Program-made: the position numbers and the translations under genes
Assembly: GCA_041665025.1 (NCBI GenBank)
Contig: JBAYJP010000002.1
Span: 128,691 to 192,690 of the forward strand
DNA: 64,000 bases
Origin: Candidatus Magasanikiibacteriota bacterium
GTDB taxonomy: Bacteria; Patescibacteriota; Patescibacteriia; Magasanikbacterales; UBA922
Reading direction: 5' to 3'
The notes under the pieces: generated by a model
The model's input: the letters and a program-made list of their open reading frames with translations, nothing else
Databases searched by the model: none
Told to the model about the DNA's origin: nothing
Part shown: piece after piece, positions 3,893 through 16,542 of the stretch
Layout of the letters: each line of letters opens with the position of its first letter
Position numbering within the stretch: the first letter of the stretch is position 1

Positions 3893-4002
3893 AGAAAGAA
3901 TGTTGACAATTTCCAGCTTTTCACCTATAATAAACCATACTATTTTCTATATATTTTCACGCCTACCTCTACAAAAGAAAATAAATTTTCTTTTCATCCA
4001 CT

Positions 4003-4077
4003 GCGGGCATCATATAATGGTTATTATCCCAGTTTTCCAAACTGGTGACAGGAGTTCGATTCTCCTTGCCCGCTCCA
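4003..4077 (+). tRNA. tRNA-Gly (anticodon UCC) with encoded CCA
   Basis: Manual cloverleaf. Acceptor GCGGGCA/TGCCCGC. D-arm with GG. Anticodon stem CCAGT/ACTGG with loop TTTCCAA (U33, UCC, A37). T-arm AGGAG-TTCGATT-CTCCT. Discriminator T, then CCA. Confidence 0.75.
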
Positions 4078-5658
4078 AGTTGAAAAAACGGTCTGAAAAT
4101 GACTGTTTTTTCTTTTATCTTCGCACAAAACACTTGGTTCTACTCGGGCAATTTTTAAGATTTCGTTTTCAAGCCCGTTCTTCAAAGTGAGGTACGGTTT
4201 TTGTAGTTCAATACTGAGTTTTCCATCTCTAAAATAAAAGTTCTGACCAATGCATTTCAAAATATGCGTTTTGGTTTCAAAGTCCCCATGTTCAAACCAG
4301 TGCTTTGCATATGTAGCAAAATTAAATGTCTTTTCAGTGAGATCAAGCCAGTCGTCTACTCGCGTCTCGGTTTTCCTAATCTCAAGCTCTATTCGCCCCT
4401 TTTCTGACACCAAAGAACTTTTTTGTCCTCTAAATTCTTCTTCCGTTATCATCTCCTTTTTTGCATTTTCAGGAGAGATATACAAATTTATTAAATTATC
4501 TATGCGCCTAAGACAGGAATTATAATTATCTTGAAGGTTGCTGACGATAATGTTTCGGTCATACTCCTCTACAAGATTTTGGTCTCGCAAGACTTGAATT
4601 GCCCAGTGTAAAAATTCCTCTGGGATAGTAATACTGTCTAAGTAATCAGTTACTTGTTTTAACAATGCACTATGTTCTATAGATTTTTGATGACACTCAA
4701 TATCCCTGCGATTATGTGAGCAGTGGTGGTAAAGATACTGTTTAATTTTTCCGGTTGTTTTATTTTTCTTATGTTTTTCTTCGGCGACGATCATTCCTCC
4801 ACACTCTGCGCATTTAATCACTCCGCTAAATGGTAACCTCTTATTTTTTGGCCGCGGTTTACCCTTTTTACCCAAAATGGTCTGTGCCAAATCAAATTCT
4901 TCTTTTGTTATCATTGGTTTGTGTTTACCTTGATAAATCGTACTCTTGTACATAAATTCGCCACAATAAAACATATTATTAAGCATTTTGTAGGTTCCAT
5001 TAACACTCATCTTTTTGCCTTCTGATGTTCTTAAACCCCATTCTTCTGTGGCTATTCTTTTAATCTGCATTACTGAGTAGTTATCCGTTAGAAGTAAATC
5101 CCACATTTTTCTAACTAAAGAGAAACGCTCTTGATCTACGAATACAACTTTATTCCCTTTTTCTCCGAACTTGTCATTCAAGTAACCAATCGGGGCTTTA
5201 CCTGGCCGCCAACCCTTTTCTACCTTAGACTTCATACCGCGTGTAACATCTTTACTTAGGTCAATAATAAACTGATTTGCCATGCCAAGCTCTACTGCCA
5301 TCATAAGTACATTATCTGTCGGCAAATACTCACGCCCCGGGGTTATAATTGATTTCATCACCTCTTGCTGAAGTAACCACTGTATTTCCCCTCCATCCAC
5401 TGGATTTCGCGACAAACGATTGAGCTTCCAACAGATGATCGCGTCGGCTTGTCCACTCTTCAGCATGGCCATCATTTCGTTATACATCGGTCTTCCGGGC
5501 TGTTTGGCTGATTTTGACTCGCCGAATGTCTTAACAACATTTAGCCCCCTACGGGTAACTTCATATGCCAATTCGCGTCGTTGGTCTTCAATTGATTGAA
5601 CCTGACGATCTTCTGCATCGGTAGATTTTCTCAAATACATGATATATCGTAATTTCAT
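4024..5658 (-). CDS. Large serine recombinase (resolvase-type N-terminal catalytic domain, recombinase domain, zinc ribbon, coiled coil). Its 3' end overlaps the tRNA-Gly 3' half.
   Basis: N-terminal MYLRKSTDAEDRQ is the serine-recombinase catalytic Ser motif. Cys cluster CAECGG..HHCSH. 544 aa, typical size of large serine integrases. The ORF reads through tRNA positions 4024-4077. Confidence 0.85.
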   Translation of the reverse strand: MKLRYIMYLRKSTDAEDRQVQSIEDQRRELAYEVTRRGLNVVKTFGESKSAKQPGRPMYNEMMAMLKSGQADAIICWKLNRLSRNPVDGGEIQWLLQQEVMKSIITPGREYLPTDNVLMMAVELGMANQFIIDLSKDVTRGMKSKVEKGWRPGKAPIGYLNDKFGEKGNKVVFVDQERFSLVRKMWDLLLTDNYSVMQIKRIATEEWGLRTSEGKKMSVNGTYKMLNNMFYCGEFMYKSTIYQGKHKPMITKEEFDLAQTILGKKGKPRPKNKRLPFSGVIKCAECGGMIVAEEKHKKNKTTGKIKQYLYHHCSHNRRDIECHQKSIEHSALLKQVTDYLDSITIPEEFLHWAIQVLRDQNLVEEYDRNIIVSNLQDNYNSCLRRIDNLINLYISPENAKKEMITEEEFRGQKSSLVSEKGRIELEIRKTETRVDDWLDLTEKTFNFATYAKHWFEHGDFETKTHILKCIGQNFYFRDGKLSIELQKPYLTLKNGLENEILKIARVEPSVLCEDKRKNSHFQTVFSTWSGQGESNSCHQFGKLG

Positions 5659-5679
5659 ATAATTTTAATTAGGTAAATT

Positions 5680-5797
5680 AAAAGGGACGGCTAAGGTTGA
5701 CCCAAATCCGCTACCCCGAAGGATTGCCTCATTGGCATAGCCGCCCCTTTTAAGGGACGAGACAAAAAAACGGGGTTTTGATGGATTTTGGGTCAAC
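5680..5797. repeat. Nested inverted repeats immediately upstream of the recombinase start (candidate recombinase binding / att or res-like site)
   Basis: Inner IR: AAAAGGGACGGCTA (5680-5693) versus ATAGCCGCCCCTTTT (5737-5751). Outer IR: GGTTGACCCAAATCC (5695-5709) versus GGATTTTGGGTCAAC (5783-5797). Confidence 0.5.
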
Positions 5798-5825
5798 GAT
5801 TACATTATACCATAAGCAAATATTT

Positions 5826-6194
5826 TTAGAATGACTTAAAATTTTTGTTAAGGGTCTCCTCAATTTTTGAGACTCTTTCTCCTAAATCAGAGACTTCCAT
5901 GGCCTTAATCAAATGTCCAGATAGGTATCCCAAGCAATTTGCGATCTTTAATTCTATCAAGCCGCTGCGCACTTCATTGATTGTGGTTGCAAGTAGTACA
6001 ACCACATCTTTTGGTTTGTTGATAATAACTGGTGGGAGCCTGCTCCGGTTCTTCTTGGACATTCTTCCACCCCTAAGGATCGCCTCTCTTCTTTCTTTTT
6101 TTGTCTCTGGATTATGGATAAAGCAGAACCTGCTATTTTTCATTGCGCTGGCAAGACATTGTTTATTGTTAAATTTAATATAATTACATCTCAT
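5826..6194 (-). CDS. Hypothetical small protein (Cys/His-containing N-terminus), cargo of the putative element
   Basis: 122-aa ORF. Start overlaps the upstream ORF by 4 nt (operon-like). No recognisable family. Confidence 0.45.
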   Translation of the reverse strand: MRCNYIKFNNKQCLASAMKNSRFCFIHNPETKKERREAILRGGRMSKKNRSRLPPVIINKPKDVVVLLATTINEVRSGLIELKIANCLGYLSGHLIKAMEVSDLGERVSKIEETLNKNFKSF

Positions 6195-6544
6195 ACTTTT
6201 TTGAAAAATCTATAGGCCTTTACCATCTGTTCATATTCTTCTAATAATTTTTCTTTTATATCTTGCCTTTCTTCATGTTTTATTTCCCAGTCTCTTTGTT
6301 TAGCCAATAAACCAAGCATTTCATCATTCGTCTTTTCAGTCTGTCTAAGCATTTCAAATATCGTTGGATTATCTAAAAATAACTCTCTATATTCATTCGC
6401 TTCATCTTCATTTTTTATCCTCTGATAAATTGAGCGGCGCAATCGTAAAGATAACTCCACAAGTTGTGCTTCGGATAGGTTCCTAAATGGCCTATTATTC
6501 ACGGGAATGCTTTTTTCTATCTTTTTAATTCTTGATTCCATCAT
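6191..6544 (-). CDS. Hypothetical coiled-coil protein
   Basis: 117-aa ORF rich in charged residues, co-directional with and overlapping the next gene. Confidence 0.45.
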   Translation of the reverse strand: MMESRIKKIEKSIPVNNRPFRNLSEAQLVELSLRLRRSIYQRIKNEDEANEYRELFLDNPTIFEMLRQTEKTNDEMLGLLAKQRDWEIKHEERQDIKEKLLEEYEQMVKAYRFFKKV

Positions 6545-7081
6545 AAGCGTAGCTTATGGGGTATACCCCCACATATTTCTACTAAGTATTTATCGGATAT
6601 GGACAAGAGGGATTAAAAGCCCACTATTATACAGTAGCTTCTATTTCGGCCGTATTTCTCCGTTGTTTCTCGGTACGGCCTATGGCTCACTCTCCGTGGG
6701 GTCAGTACTCTGCCCGTTGGGTAACTCTATATCGCCAAGCCAATTCAATTTAACGATACAGACGGTCTTGGTTTATCGGCGTAAGGAGTTCCGATTGCTG
6801 TCGGAACCGCATCAGGATTACCAAGTCCTATGATTTGATGGCGTCCACGGGGTGGCTCATAGGTTCGCCCACCGTCCCCCGCAGTATTTAATCCCTCACC
6901 CAATTTCCGATATTATTCTTGAAACTGAGCATCTTCTTTTTTGATTGGTTTATAAATTAACCCAACAAGCTGGACGAGCTTTATTGCTTGTTCTCGTGCG
7001 TCTTCAAGACCGATCTCTTTACCAAAGAGGTTCTTGTAGAGTGTTTGAAATTTTGCAACTTGCTCATCCGATACCATACAA

Positions 7082-7363
7082 CTATGATTTACTGCTATAA
7101 ATTCTATTTTTTAGCATTTTGATATTATCAAAGTAAGCTCTTGCTCCCACATTCATTTTGTCACAAAAATAAGCACCAAACGCCTCCTCAACCTCAACTC
7201 CTTCCCTAAACCCAAAGAGCACCCTACGCGAGTTGGTCTTATCTAAAGATACGAGCTCCAAACCCACAGTTACAAGAGCTGCAGCACAACCCAGATCAGA
7301 TGTTGTGAAAATTTTTGGTTGTTCTTCTAACAATTGTTTATTTAATTCTAATCCAGTTTTCAT
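7082..7363 (-). CDS. Hypothetical protein
   Basis: 93-aa ORF, no recognised motif. Confidence 0.4.
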   Translation of the reverse strand: MKTGLELNKQLLEEQPKIFTTSDLGCAAALVTVGLELVSLDKTNSRRVLFGFREGVEVEEAFGAYFCDKMNVGARAYFDNIKMLKNRIYSSKS

Positions 7364-7510
7364 ATTTGCTATTGAATGTATTGCTTGTATTATGATGGGA
7401 AATCATTCTTTTTTTGATAGGTTTTTACTCTACCTCAAAAAATAAAAAAATGGCTTATATTAGCCATTTGATTTGACAAAATTAACACCCAGTTAAGGGA
7501 TAGTGTTACC

Positions 7511-8338
7511 TTAGTGGAAGCTTATGTCATATTCTTCTTTGTTTAGAGCATAGCCCCCAGTAGGCAGACTGATAATCAATTTTCTTTTTTTGTCTTGAGA
7601 TTTTTCTATTTGCATTTTTTTCAAAAAAATTTTATTAATATTTGATATCTCCTTTCCTATAAATTCAGCGTTCTTTTTTCTTAATAGTAATTCTGAAAGT
7701 TCTTTGCCGCTTAATTTTTTATTGCTAAGGAAGTCAATTATTTTTCGTCGGTTTCCTTTTATAGAATACTGTAATTTTTTTCCTCGTTCTATTCTCCAAA
7801 TTCCTGAATCAGAAGTAATATGGATAGTAAGTTTATTATCATCAAAACTATCATTGATCAAATCAACCTTTTTCTTTTCTTCTTTAAGATAATCAACAAA
7901 TTTCTTATTGCTGTGTTTCTTATTTTCACGCCGTTTTTTAAGTAGATTATTAATATAGTCAAAAATTTCTTTATCGTCCTCTGACAGACTAAATTTTGGC
8001 GACCCTACAAGGATATACTCCTTTTCAATTTGTGCAAGACATTTTTCAACTAAAATACGATCATGTTCCCAAACAATGTTCTTCTCTTGCAAGTCACTAA
8101 TAAGATCGTCTGGCAGCAGGAGCAGTAAATCGCGTTTAACACTATCAAATTCAGGGAAATCTAACATTGATTGGAGGTAACTTTTAATGAGCATGTAAAT
8201 ACCATTTAGTTCTCTATCCCCAATTGCCAAATAGCCTGTTAATACCAAATCTGTCATGTCTAATAATTTGTCCAAATATAGCTGGCTTAGGAAGAGACGC
8301 TGCCCAAAGTTTGTATAGGTTTTTCTTTTCATATTCAT
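7511..8338 (-). CDS. Hypothetical protein (Lys-rich, possible C-terminal winged-helix)
   Basis: 275-aa ORF with no overlapping alternative. Followed by a hairpin/T-run at 7455-7480. Confidence 0.5.
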   Translation of the reverse strand: MNMKRKTYTNFGQRLFLSQLYLDKLLDMTDLVLTGYLAIGDRELNGIYMLIKSYLQSMLDFPEFDSVKRDLLLLLPDDLISDLQEKNIVWEHDRILVEKCLAQIEKEYILVGSPKFSLSEDDKEIFDYINNLLKKRRENKKHSNKKFVDYLKEEKKKVDLINDSFDDNKLTIHITSDSGIWRIERGKKLQYSIKGNRRKIIDFLSNKKLSGKELSELLLRKKNAEFIGKEISNINKIFLKKMQIEKSQDKKRKLIISLPTGGYALNKEEYDISFH

Positions 8339-8516
8339 AATAATTTTACTTATATATTACGCCTTTACATTGTAAGTTACAATGTTTTAATCATTATAAC
8401 AATTGTCTAATTACAACCACTGAAAAATTACGCTTGGAACTTGATTTCTGGCCCAAAATGATATAGTATTAAGTGGACAACTTAAGACCTAAACCCGTCT
8501 CGGGCATGGTCAAAAA

Positions 8517-8635
8517 CACTGCACAAACATAGAGATGGCTATTCCGTCTCTGGCATTGTTTGTGCAGTCAGTAGCCGAAAGGTTACTGGGTTCCGAAAGG
8601 GACCGCCAGTGTACGGGTAGCCTTTTTTGTTTTCC
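8517..8635 (+). promoter_or_regulatory. Structured leader with an intrinsic-terminator-like T-run directly upstream of a secreted-protein gene (candidate attenuator / cis-regulatory RNA)
   Basis: Perfect 12-bp inverted repeat ACTGCACAAACA...TGTTTGTGCAGT (8517-8568) enclosing a second stem. Two CCGAAAGG motifs. GGGTAGCC followed by TTTTTTGTTTT (8621-8635). The gene starts at 8652/8661. Confidence 0.4.
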
Positions 8636-8651
8636 GAATATCAATAACACA

Positions 8652-9350
8652 ATGTGTAATATGGATAGATATAAAATTAAAAAAGGAATTTTCAATAAAT
8701 CCACAATAACAATTGTCGTTACTTTTTTGATTTTAGGGTCTGTATATTCTGGTGTTGTGCTGTATAGAAAATCTCTGGCTAACAAAACACAAGCGGAATT
8801 ATTGCACGTCACTGGAGCACAAGAAGAACCCACAGAAATTACAGGAGAGAAATTCTATCAAATTACCCTAAGTTCATCACCATATAGAAGATCAGATGAT
8901 GACCGTCTGGGCGATATAATGCTGGAGGTCAATTTGAAGAATTTGAACATTACTCCTTTTATTACCAATTTAGGTACTGACAAATGCATTCTTTCTGACA
9001 AGTTAGGCAGACAATACCAAGCGGACCTCATAAGCGAAGTCCCACTTAAAAAAGCACTTCTTACGGGGGAGGAAGTATCTGTAAAAATTGACGGGGCATT
9101 ATACATAAATGTTCTTCAAGAAGGAGAAACATCTTGCCAAAAAGAAGGGTCTGGAGTGATTGACTGGGTTCATAACAATGATTGGGTCAAAAACGCTGTT
9201 AAATGCGTCTACAGCCCTTCTGGAGAGTGTACATGTGAGGACATTGGTCCACTCTCAGTGAATGAATGCACTTTCCGCGTTACTTCGGATGGAAAACAGG
9301 CGTCTAACGGCTGGGGTCAATATCCATTAGTTGTACCTATCCAGAATTAA
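8652..9350 (+). CDS. Secreted/membrane-anchored Cys-rich hypothetical protein. The ORF-track start at 8535 lies inside the leader hairpin and is probably not used.
   Basis: MCNMDRYKIKK followed by a TM segment STITIVVTFLILGSVYSGVVLY. Multiple Cys in the C-terminal third. Confidence 0.55.
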   Translation: MCNMDRYKIKKGIFNKSTITIVVTFLILGSVYSGVVLYRKSLANKTQAELLHVTGAQEEPTEITGEKFYQITLSSSPYRRSDDDRLGDIMLEVNLKNLNITPFITNLGTDKCILSDKLGRQYQADLISEVPLKKALLTGEEVSVKIDGALYINVLQEGETSCQKEGSGVIDWVHNNDWVKNAVKCVYSPSGECTCEDIGPLSVNECTFRVTSDGKQASNGWGQYPLVVPIQN

Positions 9351-9361
9351 ACCTGAAATAT

Positions 9362-9790
9362 ATGAACAAGAAAATTATTATTTTTAGCATAATTATCATT
9401 ATCGTTACCATTCTTGCTGGTGGTATCTACAAGGTCGTATCATTAAACCAAAAAATCTCTTATTACAAAAACAAGGAAGCCGAGGATTACTTCAAAAAGA
9501 AATTAGAGTGCGGTGAAATGGCCGCCCCAATTAAAGAGGAACTTCAAAAATATAACTCGGGCCCTCTTTCTCTATTTGTAGAAAATTTTGAGATGGTTTT
9601 TTATAGCCCTAAAGAAAATAGCTGTATTTATTCCATAGAGAGACTTTACACGGGGGACCAACCCGAACGGGAATACGTTGTCTATAATGCCCTCACAAAA
9701 CACAAGATTACTTCTTTTCAATTTCCATCCCAGTGGGAAAATTACAAATCATTTTTATTAGAGTATTCAAACGGAGAGATTAGATTGTAA
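9362..9790 (+). CDS. Membrane-anchored hypothetical protein
   Basis: N-terminal hydrophobic helix IIIFSIIIIIVTILAGGIY. 142 aa. Confidence 0.5.
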   Translation: MNKKIIIFSIIIIIVTILAGGIYKVVSLNQKISYYKNKEAEDYFKKKLECGEMAAPIKEELQKYNSGPLSLFVENFEMVFYSPKENSCIYSIERLYTGDQPEREYVVYNALTKHKITSFQFPSQWENYKSFLLEYSNGEIRL

Positions 9791-9791
9791 A

Positions 9792-10211
9792 TTGATTACT
9801 GTGGCCATCATATCAACATTTTATAGCATCTTGATACCCATTGAAAACCTAAGAAGGGTTTTATCAAAAGAACAACTACAAGAAATTCTCCCTAAAAGAA
9901 CTTGCTATGGAGGAATTTGGTTTGATGATTATTTGTATTGTGAGATATCTATGGGACCAGCGGATAATGAGGCTATTGTTGAGTTTTGGAAAGAAAAGGG
10001 GTTAGTGCCATTTGAGACCAGAGACGGCAAACAATACTGGAACGAATTGTGTTTGATCCCATCTCCGGATAATCAGCCAACTTTGCCTTGTGATTGGGTA
10101 GAAATTAGATATGAAGATAAGCATGGATACTGCTATAATTTAAGGGGCAAACCACAAGGTGAAATTGTGAGAGGACCGAAACCAGTAAAAAATTTCTTTG
10201 ATCTCAACTAA
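9792..10211 (+). CDS. Hypothetical protein
   Basis: 139-aa ORF starting 2 nt after the previous stop (operon). Confidence 0.5.
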   Translation: MITVAIISTFYSILIPIENLRRVLSKEQLQEILPKRTCYGGIWFDDYLYCEISMGPADNEAIVEFWKEKGLVPFETRDGKQYWNELCLIPSPDNQPTLPCDWVEIRYEDKHGYCYNLRGKPQGEIVRGPKPVKNFFDLN

Positions 10212-10245
10212 TTATTTAACAATCCTTATAATAAAGCGTATAAAC

Positions 10246-10278
10246 AAAAAAGCGGGCGAAGCCCGCGTTCTTGTTTTT
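10246..10278 (+). terminator. Rho-independent terminator
   Basis: GCGGGC-GAA-GCCCGC stem followed by GTTCTTGTTTTT. Confidence 0.7.
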
Positions 10279-10712
10279 AAGTTTTTAGTTCTCTAATCGT
10301 TTACAACGTTCACATAGTCTACGTCCATCAGTACCTTGTCTAAGATTTTCTTTTTCTATATTATTACCCTCTGTACATTTATTAGAATTATGATAAACTT
10401 TTATCCATGTTAACTTTGAATGATAAGGTTGTACTTTCATATAGTAATAGTAATAGTAATAGTAATATTAAAATTAATTATTTATAAGTTGTTAATTTTT
10501 TGAAGACCTGCTATAATTAATTTGTTAGGGTAATTATAACTTGCAGGAAGACGCGATTAATTAACGATTGTTGCGTCTTTTTTATTGGGTATTTTGATTG
10601 ACATATATCTACTGTTAGATAATAATATTTTAACCTATGCGGTAAGTCTTGTCAATAGCTACTTATACCCACCGCTTGACTTTCTTATTACTATCAGATA
10701 AAATCAAAATAT

Positions 10713-11048
10713 ATGGATAACAATACCAAACAAATAATTGGAGGCAACATCCGCGCAAAACGGGAGGCCTTGGGTTTATCCCAAGAAGAACTCGCCCAAA
10801 AAGTAGGAAAGCAAACTGCTACTTATATAGCTTTTATTGAAAAAGGTGAAAGAAATATAACCACAGTAGATTTAATGGCGATAGCTAAACAGCTTGGCAC
10901 TACTGTTGCGGTTCTTATTGGTGAAGATAAAAAGGCAAAAACACCTTCTGTCGTTGATGTTTTAAGGTCTGCAAAAGAACTCAGTAAAGCTGACCGCGAA
11001 AAAATTGAAGCTATTTATAACTTTGCTAAAAACAAAAAAGATGAGTAA
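10713..11048 (+). CDS. XRE-family helix-turn-helix transcriptional regulator
   Basis: GNIRAKREALGLSQEELAQKVG..TYIAFIEKGERN is the Cro/C1 HTH signature. Confidence 0.85.
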   Translation: MDNNTKQIIGGNIRAKREALGLSQEELAQKVGKQTATYIAFIEKGERNITTVDLMAIAKQLGTTVAVLIGEDKKAKTPSVVDVLRSAKELSKADREKIEAIYNFAKNKKDE

Positions 11049-11556
11049 TGACTACGAAAGTGTATCTGATGATTTGTTGACCCCCAACTTAAAGGGAGCC
11101 AGACTTAGAGCTAAGAATATTTGGAATGAATTTTGTGGAGCAAAAATACCGGTAAAACTTAATGACATAATCCAAAAAATGGGGATTGATATTCGGGGAG
11201 AGGATCTAAATTCTGCCGATGCCATCACAAGAATGGATAGCAACGGCGTTTGCTGTATGGTTTATGACCAAAATAGTTCCGTTGTGAGGAAAAGATTCAC
11301 AATAGCACACGAAATAGGACACTTAGCAATGGAACACACATCATCGTGGGGAGGGTGTAATCAGTTTTCAAAAAAATCTCAGGAAAAGGAGGCTGATGCT
11401 TTTGCTGGTGAACTGTTAGTGCCATCTGAAGACTTGAAGGAATTTACTAAACAAAAACGCACAATTCAAGAAATAATGAGTAGATACTGGATAAGTAATC
11501 CTGCGGCCTTTGTGGCAGTGCAAAATAATCGTTTATTAGATAGGATTAAAATATAA
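11041..11556 (+). CDS. ImmA/IrrE-family zinc metallopeptidase (partner of the XRE regulator)
   Basis: HEIGHLAMEH (HEXXH). Start overlaps the XRE stop by 8 nt. The XRE+ImmA pairing is typical of phage/ICE immunity modules. Confidence 0.8.
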   Translation: MSNDYESVSDDLLTPNLKGARLRAKNIWNEFCGAKIPVKLNDIIQKMGIDIRGEDLNSADAITRMDSNGVCCMVYDQNSSVVRKRFTIAHEIGHLAMEHTSSWGGCNQFSKKSQEKEADAFAGELLVPSEDLKEFTKQKRTIQEIMSRYWISNPAAFVAVQNNRLLDRIKI

Positions 11557-11689
11557 TTTTACTGTGTATTTCCCACATAAAAAATTTGGCAGTTGGTTAT
11601 ATCATGTTTAATCTATTAGGTATTTGGAAAAGACAAAATAATACTTTTTAACTTTACTGCTGTGATACCAGCGTCGTATCTTTTATCAA

Positions 11690-11770
11690 AATAGTTCTGA
11701 CGTCTTTCACTAATTAAGCTCTCGTTAAAACTTCGCTTAACAAGCGTAGTTTTTTGTTTACCCTTACGTG
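11690..11770 (+). repeat. Copy 1 of a repeated sRNA-3'/terminator module
   Basis: GTTCTGACGTCTTTCACTAATTAAGCTCTCGTTAAAACTTCGCTTAACAAGCGTAGTTTTTTGTTTACC matches 14660-14735 and 16446-16490. Confidence 0.5.
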
Positions 11771-11795
11771 TGAGTAGAACAAGGCAGTAAAACTA

Positions 11796-11824
11796 TTGAC
11801 AAAAAGGAGATTTTATGCTATACT
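11796..11824 (+). promoter_or_regulatory. Consensus sigma70-type promoter reading into the GC-rich cassette
   Basis: TTGACA-N17-TATACT in AT-rich DNA. A structured leader (inverted repeats) follows, then the GGAGAGG RBS of the first GC-rich ORF. Confidence 0.6.
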
Positions 11825-11989
11825 TTTCGGTTCGATTATAATTCGAACTGTGCTCTTTTTAGCAAAAAATTAGATTAAAAAGACTTGGGTCACAAGAGAA
11901 CTAAATTATTTTAGTTTTGTTTTGACCCAGGTCTCGTTTGCTTGGTTGCGACGAGACTCCGAGACGGATAACACGGAGAGGTGATACCG

Positions 11990-13045
11990 ATGGACCGCAC
12001 CGAACTGACCACCCTCGCCACCCGCCTGCTCAACCCCATCGCCGGCCTGCACAAGCAGGTGATCGCCAGCTTCGACACCCCCCAGGTGGGCCCGTACCAC
12101 CAGGAGGGGAACTACCTGGTCGACCACCTCATCCGAATGTTCAACGAGTGGAGACGCCTCGCCGGCAGACCCGAGATGTCCGAGGTCCTCGAGGTCGCCC
12201 TCAACCAGGTCGAGTACCACATCGAAAACGGTGAGGACCTCATCGCCCTCTACATCGTCCTCCACGACGCGTGGAAGGGTGACGAGGTGATGCAGGTGAA
12301 GCTCGACGGTCTGCCCGAGATGACCATGACGCGCAAGTCCTGGGCCAAGTGGGTCAAGACCATGGGCTCGCAGGACAAGGACCCCGTCGACATCGCCAAG
12401 GCCAAGGGCATGCTGCAGGTCTCCTACGAAGACCACGCGGAAGTCGCTGCCGTACAGCTTGAGTGCTTCACCGAAACCCTCAAGCTGCCGGAGTGGTTCG
12501 TGCGCGTAGTTCTGCTGCACATGGTGGCCATCCAGCTCGCTCAGGTGAACGTCCCGCTCTACGAGCGGTCGTTCGCCAACCTGCCCGAGGAGGCCTGGCA
12601 GTTCCTGACGGTCGTGACCTGGCTCGACGCTCAGGGTGCGGTCGGGGAAGACGGCAACTGCAACATCTCCGGCTGGAACAACCTCATCTCGTCCAAGTGG
12701 GCCGCCGAGAGCTACAGGCGCGTCGAGCGCGCCATCAGGAAGGCGGACCGACTGGACGGGCAGAAGATGGAGCGCGCTCTGTCCGATCTGCGCAATTCGC
12801 ACGACATCTTCCACAACGAGACGCCGGATGAGTCCATCGACCGCCTGAAGCGCGAGTGCGCGCTGCCCAAGGTCACGGAGGCTGACGTCCGCAACGCGCT
12901 GGCCAACATCGAGGGCCTGGGCGAAGCGCTCATCGCGACCATCGCGGCCGAGATGGCCACGGACGGCAAGCTGAGCCCGGACACGGGCAGGGCGCTCGGC
13001 CGGTTCAACAAGCCGGTCCGCGACGCGCTCAAGAGCCTCGGCTGA
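11990..13045 (+). CDS. HD-motif (LHDxxK) putative metal-dependent phosphohydrolase encoded in very GC-rich foreign DNA. ATG at 11990 is preferred to the GTG at 11981.
   Basis: GPYHQEG...YIVLHDAWKGDE resembles HD-domain His / His-Asp motifs. Strong codon bias. RBS GGAGAGG 7 nt upstream. Confidence 0.6.
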   Translation: MDRTELTTLATRLLNPIAGLHKQVIASFDTPQVGPYHQEGNYLVDHLIRMFNEWRRLAGRPEMSEVLEVALNQVEYHIENGEDLIALYIVLHDAWKGDEVMQVKLDGLPEMTMTRKSWAKWVKTMGSQDKDPVDIAKAKGMLQVSYEDHAEVAAVQLECFTETLKLPEWFVRVVLLHMVAIQLAQVNVPLYERSFANLPEEAWQFLTVVTWLDAQGAVGEDGNCNISGWNNLISSKWAAESYRRVERAIRKADRLDGQKMERALSDLRNSHDIFHNETPDESIDRLKRECALPKVTEADVRNALANIEGLGEALIATIAAEMATDGKLSPDTGRALGRFNKPVRDALKSLG

Positions 13046-13187
13046 CGACCACAACCCCGAACCCCGGGCGAAAGGGGTGACAGTTCGGAAAGACGGACAA
13101 CTCTCGTGTGTCGCGTACGTTCGTACGTAGTGCGATAGTCGAGGAAATACGCGCGGGGAGCTGGATGCAAAAGCGTTCAGCACCCCG

Positions 13188-13255
13188 TGGATTTTCCGGT
13201 GAGACCGGAACTGATGAGTCCTTTAACGATAGAATACGACAGGACGAAATCCAAA
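13188..13255 (+). ncRNA. Type III hammerhead ribozyme (HH1)
   Basis: GGAU-U|UUCCGG-UGAGA-CCGGAA-CUGAUGA-GUCC-(20 nt loop)-GGAC-GAAA-UCC. Full conserved core. Predicted cleavage after 13194. Confidence 0.8.
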
Positions 13256-13407
13256 AACTGTTCTTTACAATTCGACATGGTTCTTAAATAAAAAAACGGA
13301 CGTGGGTCAACACATGGCCAGGAGTTCTCCTGGACAGATGGACCCCACGTCCGGAGGTTTTGGTCAACCACCGGATGAACTTCGAACGCACACACGGAGG
13401 TGCACTC

Positions 13408-14373
13408 ATGACCCAGTTCACGAATGCGGTGACGCACAGCGGCGACATGCACCCGGACGACGTCATGGCGGGTGGCTTCCTCAAGGAGACCAACCCCGGC
13501 ATCCGCTTCGTCCGCACCCGCGACAAGACCGTGCTCGAGGCGGCGATGTCCGACGACGACACCGTCGTCTACGACGTCGGCTTCGTGTACGACGAGTCGC
13601 GGAACTGCTACGACCACCACCAGCGGCAGAACGCCCCCAACCCCCGCCCGAACGGCGTGCCGTTCTCGAGCTTCGGGCTCCTGTGGCAGCGCTTCGGCCT
13701 GTCCTACTGCGAGCGCCTCGTGGCCAAGTACGGCAAGGACATCGACCCCGCCCAACTCCACGAGCTCATCGACCACGAGCTGGTCCAGGGCATCGACGTC
13801 ATCGACACCGGCGCGGTGGACAACCCCCGCTTCCAGCCGAAGGTCGGCGAGGTGTCCGTCGAGGTCAAGACCTTCGCGCTGGCCCTGTTCGAGCTCGCCC
13901 CCCAGCCGCTCCTGTTCGAGATCCCGCCTTACGACGAGGCCTACAACCAGGCCACCGACATCGCCGCGGTCTTCCTGAACCGCTTCGCCGAGGCCTGCCT
14001 GGCCAAGCTCTGCGGGCGTCAGCTTCTCGTGACCGGCCGCCGGGTCGAGGAGTGCGTCGTCGTGTCGCCCAAGGTCATCCCGGACTGGAGCGACGTCGTC
14101 AGCGCGGAGTTCCCCGAGACCCTCTACTACCTCGAGCCGGACACCAACGACCAGACGGGCAAGGCCTACATGCTGTGGCAGGTGCCCGTCGAGCCGCGGG
14201 GCTTCGTCGGCCGCAAGTCGCTCCCGGAGAGCTGGGCCGGCAAGCGCGGCACGGACCTCGTGGCCGTGACCGGCATCGAGGGCTCGGGCTTCTGCCACGT
14301 CGGGTGCTTCGTGGGCGGCGGCGAGACCCTCGAGGCGACGCTCGCGATGGCGAAGGCGGCCATCGCGGCGTAG
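13408..14373 (+). CDS. MYG1/UPF0160-family metal-dependent hydrolase homologue (GC-rich foreign gene)
   Basis: N-terminal THSGDMHPDDVMAGGFL and YDHHQ motifs recalled as the MYG1 signature. Start taken at MTQFTNAV (13408). Confidence 0.7.
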   Translation: MTQFTNAVTHSGDMHPDDVMAGGFLKETNPGIRFVRTRDKTVLEAAMSDDDTVVYDVGFVYDESRNCYDHHQRQNAPNPRPNGVPFSSFGLLWQRFGLSYCERLVAKYGKDIDPAQLHELIDHELVQGIDVIDTGAVDNPRFQPKVGEVSVEVKTFALALFELAPQPLLFEIPPYDEAYNQATDIAAVFLNRFAEACLAKLCGRQLLVTGRRVEECVVVSPKVIPDWSDVVSAEFPETLYYLEPDTNDQTGKAYMLWQVPVEPRGFVGRKSLPESWAGKRGTDLVAVTGIEGSGFCHVGCFVGGGETLEATLAMAKAAIAA

Positions 14374-14477
14374 CGCGGATCAAATCCGCGCAGAGGACCA
14401 TGTCGGCTACTGATTCAGTCGGCGGCGCAAGCTGCTGAAGGAGTCGTAGACGTCGGGGTGTGTATTTCACGCACCCC

Positions 14478-14538
14478 GGTCCTCTACTGATAATGTCAGT
14501 ACTGATGAGCCCATTTGTTTATGCAGGGCGAAAGGACA
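14478..14538 (+). ncRNA. Type III hammerhead ribozyme (HH2)
   Basis: GGUCCU-C|UACUGA-UAAUG-UCAGUA-CUGAUGA-GCCC-(13 nt loop)-GGGC-GAAA-GGAC. Full conserved core. Predicted cleavage after 14484. Confidence 0.8.
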
Positions 14539-14542
14539 AATT

Positions 14543-14575
14543 AAAAACCACTTATAGTAATATGAGTGGTTTTTA
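14543..14575 (+). terminator. Bidirectional intrinsic terminator (start of repeated module copy 2)
   Basis: AAAAACCACT-TATAGTAATAT-GAGTGGTTTTT. Confidence 0.65.
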
Positions 14576-14611
14576 ATTAGAAATAAGATTTATTATTGTG
14601 AATTTGCAGAG

Positions 14612-14640
14612 TTGACCAAAACTAAATTATGCGTTATACT
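14612..14640 (+). promoter_or_regulatory. Consensus promoter inside the repeated module
   Basis: TTGACC-N17-TATACT. The homologous copy at 16197-16225 reads TTGGCC-N17-TATATT. Confidence 0.5.
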
Positions 14641-14646
14641 CATCGG

Positions 14647-14724
14647 CAGTTTCAATACTTCGGTTCTAACCTCCTTTACTAAGGAGCTCTCAATAAAACT
14701 TCGCTCAAACAGCGTAGTTTTTTG
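14647..14724 (+). ncRNA. Candidate small RNA (about 80 nt) ending in an intrinsic terminator. A paralogous copy lies at about 16232-16316 and a 3' fragment at 11690-11750.
   Basis: Promoter about 7 nt upstream. Internal hairpin CCTCC-TTTACTAA-GGAG. Terminator CTTCGCT-CAAAC-AGCGTAG plus TTTTTT. Homologous 5' part (TCGGCAGTTT..GTTCTAA) in copy 2. Confidence 0.35.
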
Positions 14725-14759
14725 TTTACCCGCAAGTGTGAGTAGAACCGAGCTGCAGA

Positions 14760-15548
14760 CTATTTCAAACTATTCCATAGCATTTCCCATACAAACCGTT
14801 GGTTGTCTGCATTTGCTTGGTCTTCAATAATTACTAAGATCATACTGTCCCACGACACGGTCATGACGCGATCACCATAAATGATGGTATGACTTTTGAA
14901 AAATTTCCCATCTGGTAAAAATTTTACATCGCGCAATTCTTCTTTTGCCCGCTTAGCTTCCTGTAAGCCAAATTTAGATTTTTCTACAATTATCCTGGCT
15001 TTTATCCCACGTCTAATTCTTTCCTTAGTAAATTTCTTGTATTCTTCAGGAAAAATCGTTAGAAGTTCGGTTGATGTCCCATAGACCAAATTTTCTTTTT
15101 GGGTCATGTCGTGCCTTATCCTGTCCAAATAGGCCTGCCATACATTTTCTTTACCCTCATAATACAAGACCTTTGGTTTTTTATTTGTTTTATTTTGAAT
15201 GGCACGAAGCTCCGGTAAAAGATTAATAAAAGAAATTTCTTTATCATGTAACGATTGATAAATTTTGTCCGGATCAACTGCTTCCAGCAGTCTTTTTTTA
15301 CCACTCGGCGTTTGTTGAACAAGACCTTTGCTAATAAGATCATCCAAAACATCGTATGTAGACACACGGTGTAGGGATGCTACCTTAGCAATATTTTGTA
15401 CAGGCGCAGGCCCTAATTGTAGACAAGCCAAATAAACCTTAGCTTCTTTTATGCTTAGCCCAAATTCTTGAAGTTGCGTTGGAGTAATCATAGATGTTGT
15501 AGAGAAAATACTACATTTTAGTATATAACAATACCAACAATTAATCAA
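14760..15548 (-). CDS. TrmB-like winged-helix transcriptional regulator (paralogue 1 of 3)
   Basis: N-terminus LQEFGLSIKEAKVYLACLQLGPAPVQNIAKVASLHRVSTYDVLDDLISKGLV is the TrmB HTH signature. Confidence 0.7.
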   Translation of the reverse strand: MINCWYCYILKCSIFSTTSMITPTQLQEFGLSIKEAKVYLACLQLGPAPVQNIAKVASLHRVSTYDVLDDLISKGLVQQTPSGKKRLLEAVDPDKIYQSLHDKEISFINLLPELRAIQNKTNKKPKVLYYEGKENVWQAYLDRIRHDMTQKENLVYGTSTELLTIFPEEYKKFTKERIRRGIKARIIVEKSKFGLQEAKRAKEELRDVKFLPDGKFFKSHTIIYGDRVMTVSWDSMILVIIEDQANADNQRFVWEMLWNSLK

Positions 15549-15669
15549 TTTAGCTAAAATTAAATAAAAAATAGCTATTTTATAACAGTCTATACGTAGA
15601 ACTTTATTGACAGAATAAAAAAATATTATAAGGTTAGTTAAGATCCATCAACCGGTATGGAGGGACCAC

Positions 15670-16020
15670 ATGGAGTGGCACAATTGGGGTAAACGCCCGA
15701 ACTCTCAAACCATGAGGCATATGGTAGAGTGGGAGGAGTGCCCTTATTGCGGGCATAGAGAAAAAGATTTTCTTAACTTCATTGTTGGTTTCTCAAATAG
15801 TGAAGATATTTTTACCAAAAGCACTTGGGGAGAAAATATCTTGTGGGGCGCAGAAGCCTTGGAGTGCCCAGTATGCTTTGAAAATTCTTGGAGACATACA
15901 AAATATCGGAACCCGGACACTTTTTCCTGCCTTGTGGGTGAGGGTAAAATAGTGCTTCGCGTGCCAGGGGCAGACGAGGCCTTTCACACCATGCTCGAGA
16001 TGCACAAACAGAAAGAATAG
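15670..16020 (+). CDS. Zinc-ribbon hypothetical protein (two CxxC pairs)
   Basis: CPYCGH ... CPVCFEN. Moderately GC-enriched. Followed by GC hairpins at 16040-16110. Confidence 0.5.
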   Translation: MEWHNWGKRPNSQTMRHMVEWEECPYCGHREKDFLNFIVGFSNSEDIFTKSTWGENILWGAEALECPVCFENSWRHTKYRNPDTFSCLVGEGKIVLRVPGADEAFHTMLEMHKQKE

Positions 16021-16126
16021 TCCCGTGTATCTCGTCCGACTGGCTGGGTGCGACCACAAGTCAGCCCAGCCTCCTTGAGTGGTAATATTTATTACCTCTT
16101 GAGGAGGACTGACTTGTGTAAAAATA

Positions 16127-16260
16127 TAAAACCACTTATAGCAATATGAGTGGTTTTTGATTAAAGAGAATTATTTACTGTTGTGAATTTACCGAGTTGG
16201 CCAAAACTAAATTATGCGTTATATTCGTCGGCAGTTTGAGCACCTCAGTTCTAATGTTAA
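16127..16260 (+). repeat. Copy 3 of the terminator-promoter-sRNA module (about 85% identical to 14543-14675)
   Basis: AAAACCACTTATAGCAATATGAGTGGTTTTT ... TTGGCC-N17-TATATT ... TCGGCAGTTTGAGCACCTCAGTTCTAA. Confidence 0.55.
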
Positions 16261-16426
16261 GTACTAATGAGCTCAAATAAAATCACTCCAATTTGTTGGG
16301 GTGATTTTATTTTGTACTGTAAAGGGGAACCGAACGGGAAAGGGAGAAAACGGTAGTTTTCTCTTGCCGAGGAAAGTTCACGAAAACCCGAAGGTTTTCG
16401 TGGGAGGAGCCTAGGGCGACGAATGA

Positions 16427-16449
16427 GATTTCTCCTTGCCCGCTCACCA
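16427..16449 (+). repeat. Degenerate direct repeat of the tRNA-Gly 3' end (candidate distal att site of the integrated element)
   Basis: GATTTCTCCTTGCCCGCTCACCA versus tRNA 4058-4077 GATTCTCCTTGCCCGCTCCA. A 15-mer is identical and the rest differs by two 1-nt indels. Confidence 0.5.
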
Positions 16450-16542
16450 TAAAACTTCGCTCAAACAGCGTAGTTTTTGTTTACCGGTAAGGAGAAAACA
16501 ATCGCGGTCGAAGCGACTTGTGATTGTTTAAAAGAGGACTAA

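Follow-up and report, generated by a model that had tools for sequence, protein, structure and literature searches.

What purpose could two self-cleaving ribozymes serve when they stand on either side of a single gene in a bacterial mobile element? The question is raised by a 64,000-nt stretch of a Candidatus Magasanikiibacteriota genome (assembly GCA_041665025.1, contig JBAYJP010000002.1, positions 128,691 to 192,690; the whole of this stretch is the window, and its numbering is used throughout). In it, a 12.4-kb integrative element inserted in a tRNA-Gly gene carries a two-gene operon with two hammerhead ribozyme motifs, HH1 between the genes and HH2 between gene 2, which belongs to the MYG1/UPF0160 family, and the operon terminator. 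An earlier sequence-only reading had proposed that two complete type III hammerheads on the coding strand bracket the MYG1-like gene, and a descriptor scan together with a check of cores and pairs bore this out. We consider it likely that the two ribozymes cut a bicistronic mRNA for MYG1 and an HD-like protein into units of one cistron each, whose ends are structured.

HH1 and HH2, both on the plus strand, were each recognized by sequence, descriptor scan, folding and an E-value search of Rfam. HH1 (13188–13253) has a 5-bp stem III (U13188–U13192 paired with A13249–A13253), U13193 at position H17 and a predicted cut between 13193 and 13194. Its stem I of 6–7 bp, with a 3–5-nt loop, pairs U13194–G13199 (optionally U13200) with C13205–A13210 (optionally A13204). 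The core CUGAUGA (13211–13217) is followed by a 5-bp stem II (G13218–U13222 with A13241–C13245) capped by an 18-nt loop and by G12 A13 A14 at 13246–13248. The structure drawn earlier for HH1 was right; its coordinates were one base off, with the motif starting at 13188/13189 and the cleavage predicted after 13193 rather than 13194.

HH2 (14479–14537) is built in the same way. Its 5-bp stem III joins G14479–U14483 to A14533–C14537, H17 is C14484, and the predicted cut lies between 14484 and 14485, as had been claimed. Stem I (14485–14490 with 14496–14501) has 6–7 bp, the core CUGAUGA occupies 14502–14508, stem II (GCCC/GGGC, 14509–14512 with 14526–14529) has 4 bp and a 13-nt loop, and GAA lies at 14530–14532. 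The invariant core C3 U4 G5 A6 N7 G8 A9 with G12 A13 A14 is complete in both motifs. None of the pairs next to the core is mispaired, neither in HH1 (U13192–A13249 as A15.1–U16.1, U–A at 1.1–2.1 and G–C at 10.1–11.1) nor in HH2 (U14483–A14533 as A15.1–U16.1, U–A at 1.1–2.1 and G–C at 10.1–11.1). Both satisfy the type III layout, with three helices, capped stems I and II and an open stem III, and the minimum-free-energy fold of each isolated motif is the three-way junction.

The resemblance extends beyond the ribozymes. At its 3′ end the gene-1 message has a GC-rich hairpin (13152–13189, plus strand) that ends in GCACCCCG(UG) and folds, within 13140–13256, with a z-score of −6.0. Directly 5′ of HH2, a second GC-rich hairpin (14454–14478, plus strand), seen in the fold of 14440–14540, also ends in GCACCCCG. 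In the common module, the 3′ strand of a GC hairpin thus ends in GCACCCCG exactly 23 nt ahead of CUGAUGA. Between HH1 and HH2 the sequences differ at four of the five pairs of stem III, three of the six of stem I and one of the four of stem II, and pairing is kept throughout. Differences that leave all pairs in place are the pattern expected from selection for structure, here as seen in a comparison of two sequences only. The AU-rich stem II loops had been called odd within very GC-rich DNA. The window, a piece of an AT-rich bacterial chromosome, has ∼37% GC and is GC-rich only at ∼11.95–14.48 kb, and the hammerheads have 45–46%, so the loops are host-like.

Two such motifs are not expected by chance. 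The type III descriptor called for CUGANGA, GAAA, U16.1 and an H17 other than G; minimum lengths were 4 bp for stem I, which had to be capped, 3 bp for stem II, with closure at 10.1/11.1, and 3 bp for stem III. On both strands of the 64-kb window it matched exactly twice, at HH1 and HH2. In 300 dinucleotide-preserving shuffles of the window, a relaxed descriptor gave 0.0067 matches per window, and none was found at the observed stem lengths. Across 1.08 Mb from 146 other loci, related or unrelated, the descriptor had zero matches. For the simpler pattern CTGATGAG..CGAAA, the window has two occurrences where 0.06 would be expected.

One promoter and one terminator serve gene 1, HH1, gene 2 and HH2. 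The promoter (11796–11824, plus strand; TTGACA-17-TATACT, extended by TG) agrees with the consensus at 11 of 12 positions, and the scan for promoters listed nothing promoter-like in the interval from gene 1 to gene 2. The intrinsic terminator that the sequence-only reading had placed after HH2 is present at 14539–14582 (plus strand), a hairpin with 18-nt arms of 94% complementarity (AAAAACCACUUAUA/UAUGAGUGGUUUUU) followed by a T-run. The simplest reading of this arrangement is that gene 1 and MYG1 would be co-transcribed as one bicistronic transcript.

Gene 2 (13408–14373, plus strand, 321 aa) matches PF03690 (MYG1_exonuc) with a Pfam E-value of 1e-47 and is annotated at NCBI as ‘MYG1 family protein’, Candidatus Magasanikbacteria; like the gene-1 product, it is recorded from a metagenome-assembled genome of that name, on a 278-kb contig. 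Its family is one of nucleases or hydrolases. It is the sole open reading frame (ORF) between the cleavage sites, in agreement with the earlier claim of exactly one. Its 5′ untranslated region (UTR; 13254–13407, plus strand) holds in succession TGTTCTTTACAA, a hairpin at 13297–13353, GGUUUUGGUCAACC, a Shine-Dalgarno (SD) hairpin (GCAC...GGAGGUGC) and the ATG. A weak match to RAGATH-25 within it (13311–13342, E 5) was not significant and was discarded.

Gene 1 (11990–13045, plus strand, 351 aa) belongs to a divergent HD-like family. In a database of 5.8e9 proteins its only close match is itself, with ∼100 remote homologues. Within the family H95, D96, Y149, H152 and D216 are invariant and H40, H49 and H180 nearly so (H..HD..H..H..D). 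Similarity to PF01966 HD and to Cas3-HD is weak, and no match was found in Pfam, PHROGs or PADLOC. A single-sequence AlphaFold model, with a predicted local distance difference test score of 38, was not usable. On its conserved residues we regard gene 1 as a putative divergent HD-like phosphohydrolase. Its 5′ UTR contains a long hairpin (GACUUGGGUCA...UGACCCAGGUC; 11882–11933, plus strand) with a fold z-score of −5.6, homologous to the hairpin that precedes the gene-1 relative P0024 in locus L044; both have the form GGGUYR...YRACCC and recall the hairpin of the MYG1 5′ UTR. Directly after the operon promoter stands a terminator-like hairpin with a T-run (11828–11860), which could be a 5′-terminal stabiliser or an attenuator; the palindrome GTTCGATTATAATTCGAAC could be an operator.

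How, then, would the ribozymes act? A single transcript would start at the promoter at 11796–11824 and end at the terminator at 14539–14582. HH1 would cut it co-transcriptionally between U13193 and U13194, and HH2 between C14484 and U14485. The first product would be the gene-1 message, whose 3′ end would consist of the hairpin 13152–13189 plus GGAUU with a 2′,3′-cyclic phosphate. The second would be the MYG1 message (13194–14484, 1291 nt), with a 5′-OH directly on the HH1 stem I hairpin and a 3′ end made of the hairpin 14454–14478, GUCCUC and a cyclic phosphate. An excised RNA of ∼1.29 kb had been predicted, and its size stands; its start shifts to 13194. The third product would be a tail of ∼100 nt containing the HH2 body and the terminator.

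5′-OH ends and 5′-terminal hairpins hinder 5′-end-dependent RNases, 3′ hairpins hinder 3′ exonucleases, and ends without a 3′-OH hinder tailing. The ribozymes would uncouple the cistrons and give them defined, exonuclease-resistant ends with no need for a host RNase, and stabilization and uncoupling that are independent of host RNases would suit a mobile element. Cleavage at HH1 would also roughly recreate the MYG1 5′ end that monocistronic relatives obtain from a promoter of their own. The cleavage itself, the co-transcription and the effects on stability or translation are predictions from the sequence.

Several observations weigh against this interpretation. A search of Rfam at the gathering threshold reported no hammerhead. 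In E-value mode over 13100–14700, Hammerhead_3 (RF00008) was the best family at both sites, with 27.4 bits and E 0.0033 at HH2 (14477–14539) and 22.3 bits and E 0.089 at HH1 (13187–13254). Both scores lie far under the RF00008 gathering score of 48.5, and the E-values alone are not significant if scaled to the whole window. Two significant hits had been expected from this search; the family was the right one at both sites, and the significance fell short. Within HH1, stem III and the upstream GC hairpin overlap by 2 nt, and the cleavage triplet is AUU, which is less favoured. Fast hammerhead cleavage at physiological Mg2+ requires a tertiary contact between loop I and loop II. For this contact there is only a guess of four possible pairs (UGAG/UUUA in HH1 and AAUG/CAUU in HH2). 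Precedent gives no reason for a cut 55 nt before a terminator. Finally, hammerheads are absent from every homologous locus found, and the support comes from two sequences; cross-species covariation is not obtainable because the homologous loci carry no such hammerheads.

The Rfam shortfall is probably due in part to the length of the stem II loops (18 nt in HH1, 13 nt in HH2) and to mis-registering of the HH1 U-run by the covariance model. Perreault et al. (2011; PMC3088659) judged bacterial hammerheads by an intact core, the absence of mispairs next to the core and sound stems. By these standards we accept HH1 and HH2 as hammerheads, as far as sequence can tell, and count the Rfam failure as a real weakness. 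The low scores, the lack of conservation in any relative found and the lack of a demonstrable tertiary contact would also be in keeping with inactive look-alikes or with decaying relics of the history of the element. Against decay, the two cores are flawless, all helices are intact, and the motifs, both of them intergenic, share a strand and are separated by 1.3 kb. The shuffles gave no match with stems of these lengths. The core mutations and core-adjacent mispairs on which Perreault et al. rejected candidates (PMC3088659) are absent from both, and the compensatory differences between HH1 and HH2 point to a maintained structure. We therefore regard inactive look-alikes or relics as decidedly unlikely.

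The overlap at HH1 bears on another explanation, namely a regulated switch in which conditional cleavage at HH1 or HH2, set by competition between HH1 stem III and the GC hairpin or by a bound factor, tunes the balance between the intact bicistronic mRNA and the MYG1 mRNA. The 2 nt in question are shared with a very stable hairpin (13152–13189), and HH1 stem III is missing from the minimum-free-energy fold of the 117-nt context (13140–13256). The large stem II loops could bind something, and both this operon and a related array, L151, have a TrmB-family regulator next to them. Conversely, neither an aptamer-like conserved element nor an Rfam riboswitch match was found, HH2 has no competing structure, and in relatives a plain promoter takes the place of HH1, which favours a simple end-defining role. 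A switch is in our estimation unlikely.

Could the 1291-nt product be closed into a circle instead? An RtcB-type ligase might join its ends and so yield a circular MYG1 mRNA, in the manner of viroid-like RNAs and retrozymes. By established chemistry, the 5′-OH and 2′,3′-cyclic phosphate ends left by hammerheads are exactly those that RtcB joins. The two sites lie on the same strand and bracket one ORF, a linear mRNA gains no obvious purpose from a cut just before its terminator, and circular products were raised as a possibility by Perreault et al. (PMC3088659). However, the junction GUCCUC/UUCCGG...GAAAUCCA could not rebuild stem III, since HH2 would bring GUCCU and HH1 AUCCA, and HH1 and HH2 are not repeats. 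Complementarity between the first and the last 120 nt of the 1291-nt RNA does not exceed that of shuffles, 9% of which do as well. Terminal complementarity being at shuffle level, nothing holds the two ends together, unlike in viroids and retrozymes. In homologous cassettes that share these UTRs, a monocistronic gene simply stands between a promoter and a terminator, and a search by Perreault et al. for circular or spliced RNAs made by clustered bacterial hammerheads detected neither (PMC3088659). A circular MYG1 mRNA is accordingly very improbable.

The processing of a bicistronic mRNA into linear units gains from a comparison with relatives of the cassette. A clade of MYG1 proteins with 47–62% amino-acid identity is found on Uhrbacteria-like and other AT-rich contigs of the candidate phyla radiation (CPR). 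The UTR at 13254–13407 has homologous counterparts in L011 (3290–3438), L013 (9860–10003), L016 (8590–8667) and L018, with a conserved order from the 5′ side: a long hairpin (GGACG(C)UGGGU...ACCCAGCGUCC), then GGUUUUGGUCAACC, an SD hairpin (GCACCAGGAGGUGC) and the ATG. This conserved 5′ UTR may be a translational control element.

What precedes the UTR differs between loci. In L011, L013, L016, L017 and L020 it is a consensus promoter, in the window it is HH1, and in L018, a polycistronic array, it is a small motif termed R1, followed by the same TGTTCTTTACAA as after HH1. On the 3′ side of the relatives, the stop codon is followed by a GC hairpin, next by R1 and finally by a terminator or the next gene; the slot that HH2 occupies, between the 3′ GC hairpin and the terminator, holds R1 in L012, L016, L017, L018 and L020. 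Across the cassette family the 5′ boundary can thus be a promoter, a hammerhead or R1, and the 3′ boundary a hammerhead or R1. This equivalence of slots supports an end-defining, cistron-separating role that the hammerheads would play.

R1 consists of an outer helix, an internal loop (5′-RACUN / 5′-(U)UGAR) and a variable hairpin. In its alignment 88% of cells are paired, nine of the 15 pairs are changed on both sides, and none of 500 shuffles matches this. The eight independent instances lie in L016 (9656–9708), L017 (1603–1655), L018 (145–206 and 1556–1608), L012 (10207–10260, with a copy in L042 at 3995–4048), L020 (1381–1421), L151 (2631–2683) and L044 (1106–1161). The one in L020, and those in L151 and L044 upstream of gene-1 homologues, were recovered as further instances with an R1 covariance model, which found none in the window. 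No Rfam family matched R1, and inspection showed that it does not fit the 3-nt-bulge consensus of a kink-turn. From its position we consider R1 a candidate processing element.

The high-GC genes that these boundaries enclose are themselves unusual. GC content at third codon positions (GC3) is 0.92 in gene 1 and 0.98 in gene 2, against 0.27–0.41 in host genes. MYG1 homologues sharing 47–62% identity keep a GC3 of 0.82–0.98, and their neighbours on the same contigs have 0.25–0.46. Genes with an extreme GC3 (0.82–0.98) are the two of the window (11990–13045 and 13408–14373) and those in L011 (3436–4416), L012 (9255–10163), L013 (10001–10993 and 329–2092), L017 (490–1458), L018 (450–1406), L020 (370–1314), L041 (2977–3960 and 4130–4465), L044 (1270–2361) and L151 (1858–3973). 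They appear as spikes of 1–3 kb in AT-rich CPR contigs, and their UTRs and regulatory signals are AT-rich. The database yielded no high-GC donor lineage for them. The nearest MYG1 proteins outside the clade are proteobacterial and only 35% identical, and a simple recent transfer from a high-GC donor therefore fails as an explanation. Di- and trinucleotide counts showed the usual UA depletion only. The sustained GC3 of 0.9–0.98 may be linked to the same logic of RNA stability.

A wider proposal follows from these cassettes, with their GC3 of 0.8–0.98 in genomes of GC3 0.25–0.46 and their conserved, heavily structured UTRs. The hammerheads might be one of several interchangeable ‘cutters’ that punctuate hitherto unnoticed CPR cassettes, R1 might be a new self-cleaving or protein-independent processing element, and the cassettes might encode nuclease-hardened mRNAs. 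If this were true, cassette mRNAs would be poor in A and U and would carry 5′-OH and cyclic-phosphate ends made by ribozymes. Taken as a whole, we hold the proposal to be rather unlikely.

Searches for further examples of the hammerhead arrangement were negative. When genome and metagenome contigs were searched with the MYG1 clade, only a few close loci turned up, and all of them lacked a hammerhead. A third ribozyme, sought upstream of gene 1 and in the arrays L017, L018 and L044, gave only noise in Rfam E-value mode. Among viral contigs, all nine matches to the anchor GCACCCCG-N23-CTGATGAG were chance matches in coding DNA, and matches to the UTR pattern GACTTGGGTCA...TTGACCCA were likewise attributed to chance. 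A scan of the viral contigs with the 15-mer AGGTTTTGGTCAACC found the UTR context in none of the new loci, and an additional regular-expression match of that scan, L121, also looked like chance. A protein search of the viral contigs with the MYG1 alignment gave no match; the HD-like alignment was too diverse for such a search. The island had no blastn match in INPHARED phages, and tblastn with MYG1 found a single weak phage match (30%).

Other structured RNAs were noted in the related arrays. In L044 (330–410, 1055–1080 and 2390–2470) a structured intergenic element of ∼80 nt is repeated between successive GC-rich genes; its sequence (CCCCGACA..GUCGGGG, UGACACACGAUACUGUGUCA, GGCGAACG..CGUUCGCC) has no Rfam match. 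L017 (180–300) and L018 (1–130) have in common a long leader upstream of R1 or the UTR (AGCUCC..AAAGGCCG..AAAUAGYACC.GUUUUGGA), which may be another conserved structured RNA.

In what setting does the operon lie? The window encodes PolA, PilB, PBP1a, a pyrophosphatase and scattered tRNAs. The island in which the hammerheads had been placed was delimited as an integrative element (4003–16449) by a tRNA, a serine integrase and a displaced tRNA 3′ end. At the left end, tRNA-Gly(UCC) occupies 4003–4077, and the large serine integrase gene (4024–5658, minus strand; NCBIfam XisF/Ccr-like, phrog_95 integrase, E 3e-66) overlaps the 3′ half of the tRNA on the opposite strand. At the right end lies the displaced tRNA 3′ end (16430–16449), a 16-nt exact repeat (16430–16445) followed by ACCA and a terminator. 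The cargo comprises the integrase, small ORFs, a LOOT RNA, a helix-turn-helix (HTH)/ImmA pair, the GC-rich operon and the TrmB-family regulator. The LOOT RNA (RF03000; 8486–8604, 81 bits, E 9e-14) overlaps the start of the ORF at 8535–9350. The TrmB-family gene (14760–15548, minus strand) adjoins the GC-rich operon, and the same is seen in L151 (522–1346), an array with the gene-1 homologue P0025; the protein may be a dedicated regulator.

Direct repeats of 64–90 nt bound the operon. The left copy (11717–11780, plus strand) is 88% identical to the right copy (14685–14748, plus strand), both resemble the flank of the right end of the element, and a third, partial copy lies at 16450–16485. All three contain a terminator and are related to the downstream flank of tRNA-Gly. 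The repeats around the operon suggest stepwise accretion of modules at one attachment (att) site, the operon being an integrase-less islet. A strong promoter-like site (TTGACC-17-TATACT, in 14612–14720) lies ∼70 nt before the repeat-borne terminator and would yield an RNA of ∼70 nt, convergent with the TrmB gene.

An artificial origin of the locus was considered and rejected. ENA contig L147 (440 kb), which comes from a second assembly, has 100% identity to window positions 713–21048. The consensus promoter, the ribozyme ‘insulators’, the terminators and the GC-rich ORFs could have come from a synthetic construct; the identical L147 and the homologues rule this out. An assembly chimera is ruled out by L147 and by divergent homologues with the same UTR architecture from several other environmental samples. 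The Logan contigs L148 and L001, from an independent unitig-style assembly of this sample (SRR6484324), end at 11813, 13304 and 14507, at transitions between AT-rich and GC-rich DNA and once inside HH2, and many clade homologues likewise lie on contigs of 1.1–1.7 kb. Such breaks at the AT/GC transitions of the island are probably an effect of coverage, GC bias or variants.

How does the arrangement compare with known systems? The sequence-only reading had called it an undescribed system. Gene-flanking hammerheads in prophage-like elements were, in fact, described and assayed in 2011 in PLoS Comput Biol: clustered hammerheads flank single genes and cleave in vitro and in vivo, with a triple at ardA of Agrobacterium tumefaciens and further examples in Clostridium scindens and Azorhizobium caulinodans (Perreault et al., 2011; PMC3088659). 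As in those clusters, several hammerheads with canonical cores on the same strand bracket one gene in a mobile element with an integrase, co-transcription is presumed, and the proposed role is to turn long transcripts into gene-length mRNAs. Here, in contrast, the host is a tiny, uncultured member of the CPR/Patescibacteria, the cargo has an extreme GC3 within an AT-rich genome, a GC hairpin stands before each hammerhead, the second hammerhead lies directly before a terminator, and the corresponding places in homologous cassettes are taken by a promoter or another small motif. A 2019 review holds the biological role of bacterial hammerheads to be unsettled and polycistronic processing to be a suggested, still unproven, role (PMC6765202). 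A full-text literature search found no paper on hammerheads in Patescibacteria.

An analogy with viroid-like RNAs and retrozymes had also been drawn. Two hammerheads on the same strand do delimit a unit of ∼1.3 kb whose predicted ends are 5′-OH and 2′,3′-cyclic phosphate. In retrozymes and viroid-like RNAs, identical hammerheads lie in direct repeats, so that a monomer holds one whole ribozyme (PMC6765202). The analogy does not hold: HH1 and HH2 differ in most stem pairs, are neither interchangeable nor placed in direct repeats or long terminal repeats (LTRs), and their junction lacks stem III; the only long direct repeats lie outside the hammerheads, with no LTR-type repeat. Retrozymes have a non-coding centre with a primer-binding site and a polypurine tract, and viroid-like RNAs a rod or branched fold of the whole genome. 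Here the unit is filled by a 321-codon ORF, no logic of a target-site duplication, primer-binding site or polypurine tract is seen, and the carrier, a DNA element of bacteria, moves by means of a serine integrase.

HH1 also resembles an engineered part. RiboJ-type insulators, reportedly introduced by Lou, Stanton, Chen, Munsky and Voigt in 2012, are said to place a type III hammerhead from satellite tobacco ringspot virus (sTRSV) between promoter and ribosome-binding site. HH1 likewise lies upstream of a 5′ UTR, where cleavage would remove the upstream RNA and leave a message that begins with a 5′-OH hairpin and is expressed independently of context. Unlike RiboJ, HH1 is natural, is unrelated in sequence to sTRSV outside the core, and has another cistron as its upstream context.

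Twister and hammerhead ribozymes interchange at the same gene contexts, and this led to the discovery of pistol, hatchet and twister-sister (PMC6765202). The cassettes recall such interchange in that the hammerhead of the window and an unrelated conserved RNA, R1, occupy equivalent positions. R1, however, is just a hairpin whose internal loop has 5+4 nt, none of the natural self-cleaving classes known is that small, and the alternative at the 5′ position is in most relatives a promoter.

These comparisons suggest that (i) the arrangement is most likely one already described for prophages and not a new circular-RNA system; and (ii) what is new here is the host lineage, a cargo of extreme GC3 and the natural exchange of promoter, hammerhead and R1. 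The locus is a clean, experimentally tractable case of gene-flanking hammerheads, seemingly the first noted in CPR/Patescibacteria. The cassettes that carry a promoter, a hammerhead or R1 at the same positions form a natural comparison set and offer a direct way to test the purpose of cleavage, through which definition of the 5′ end, uncoupling of cistrons and removal of the terminator tail can be told apart.

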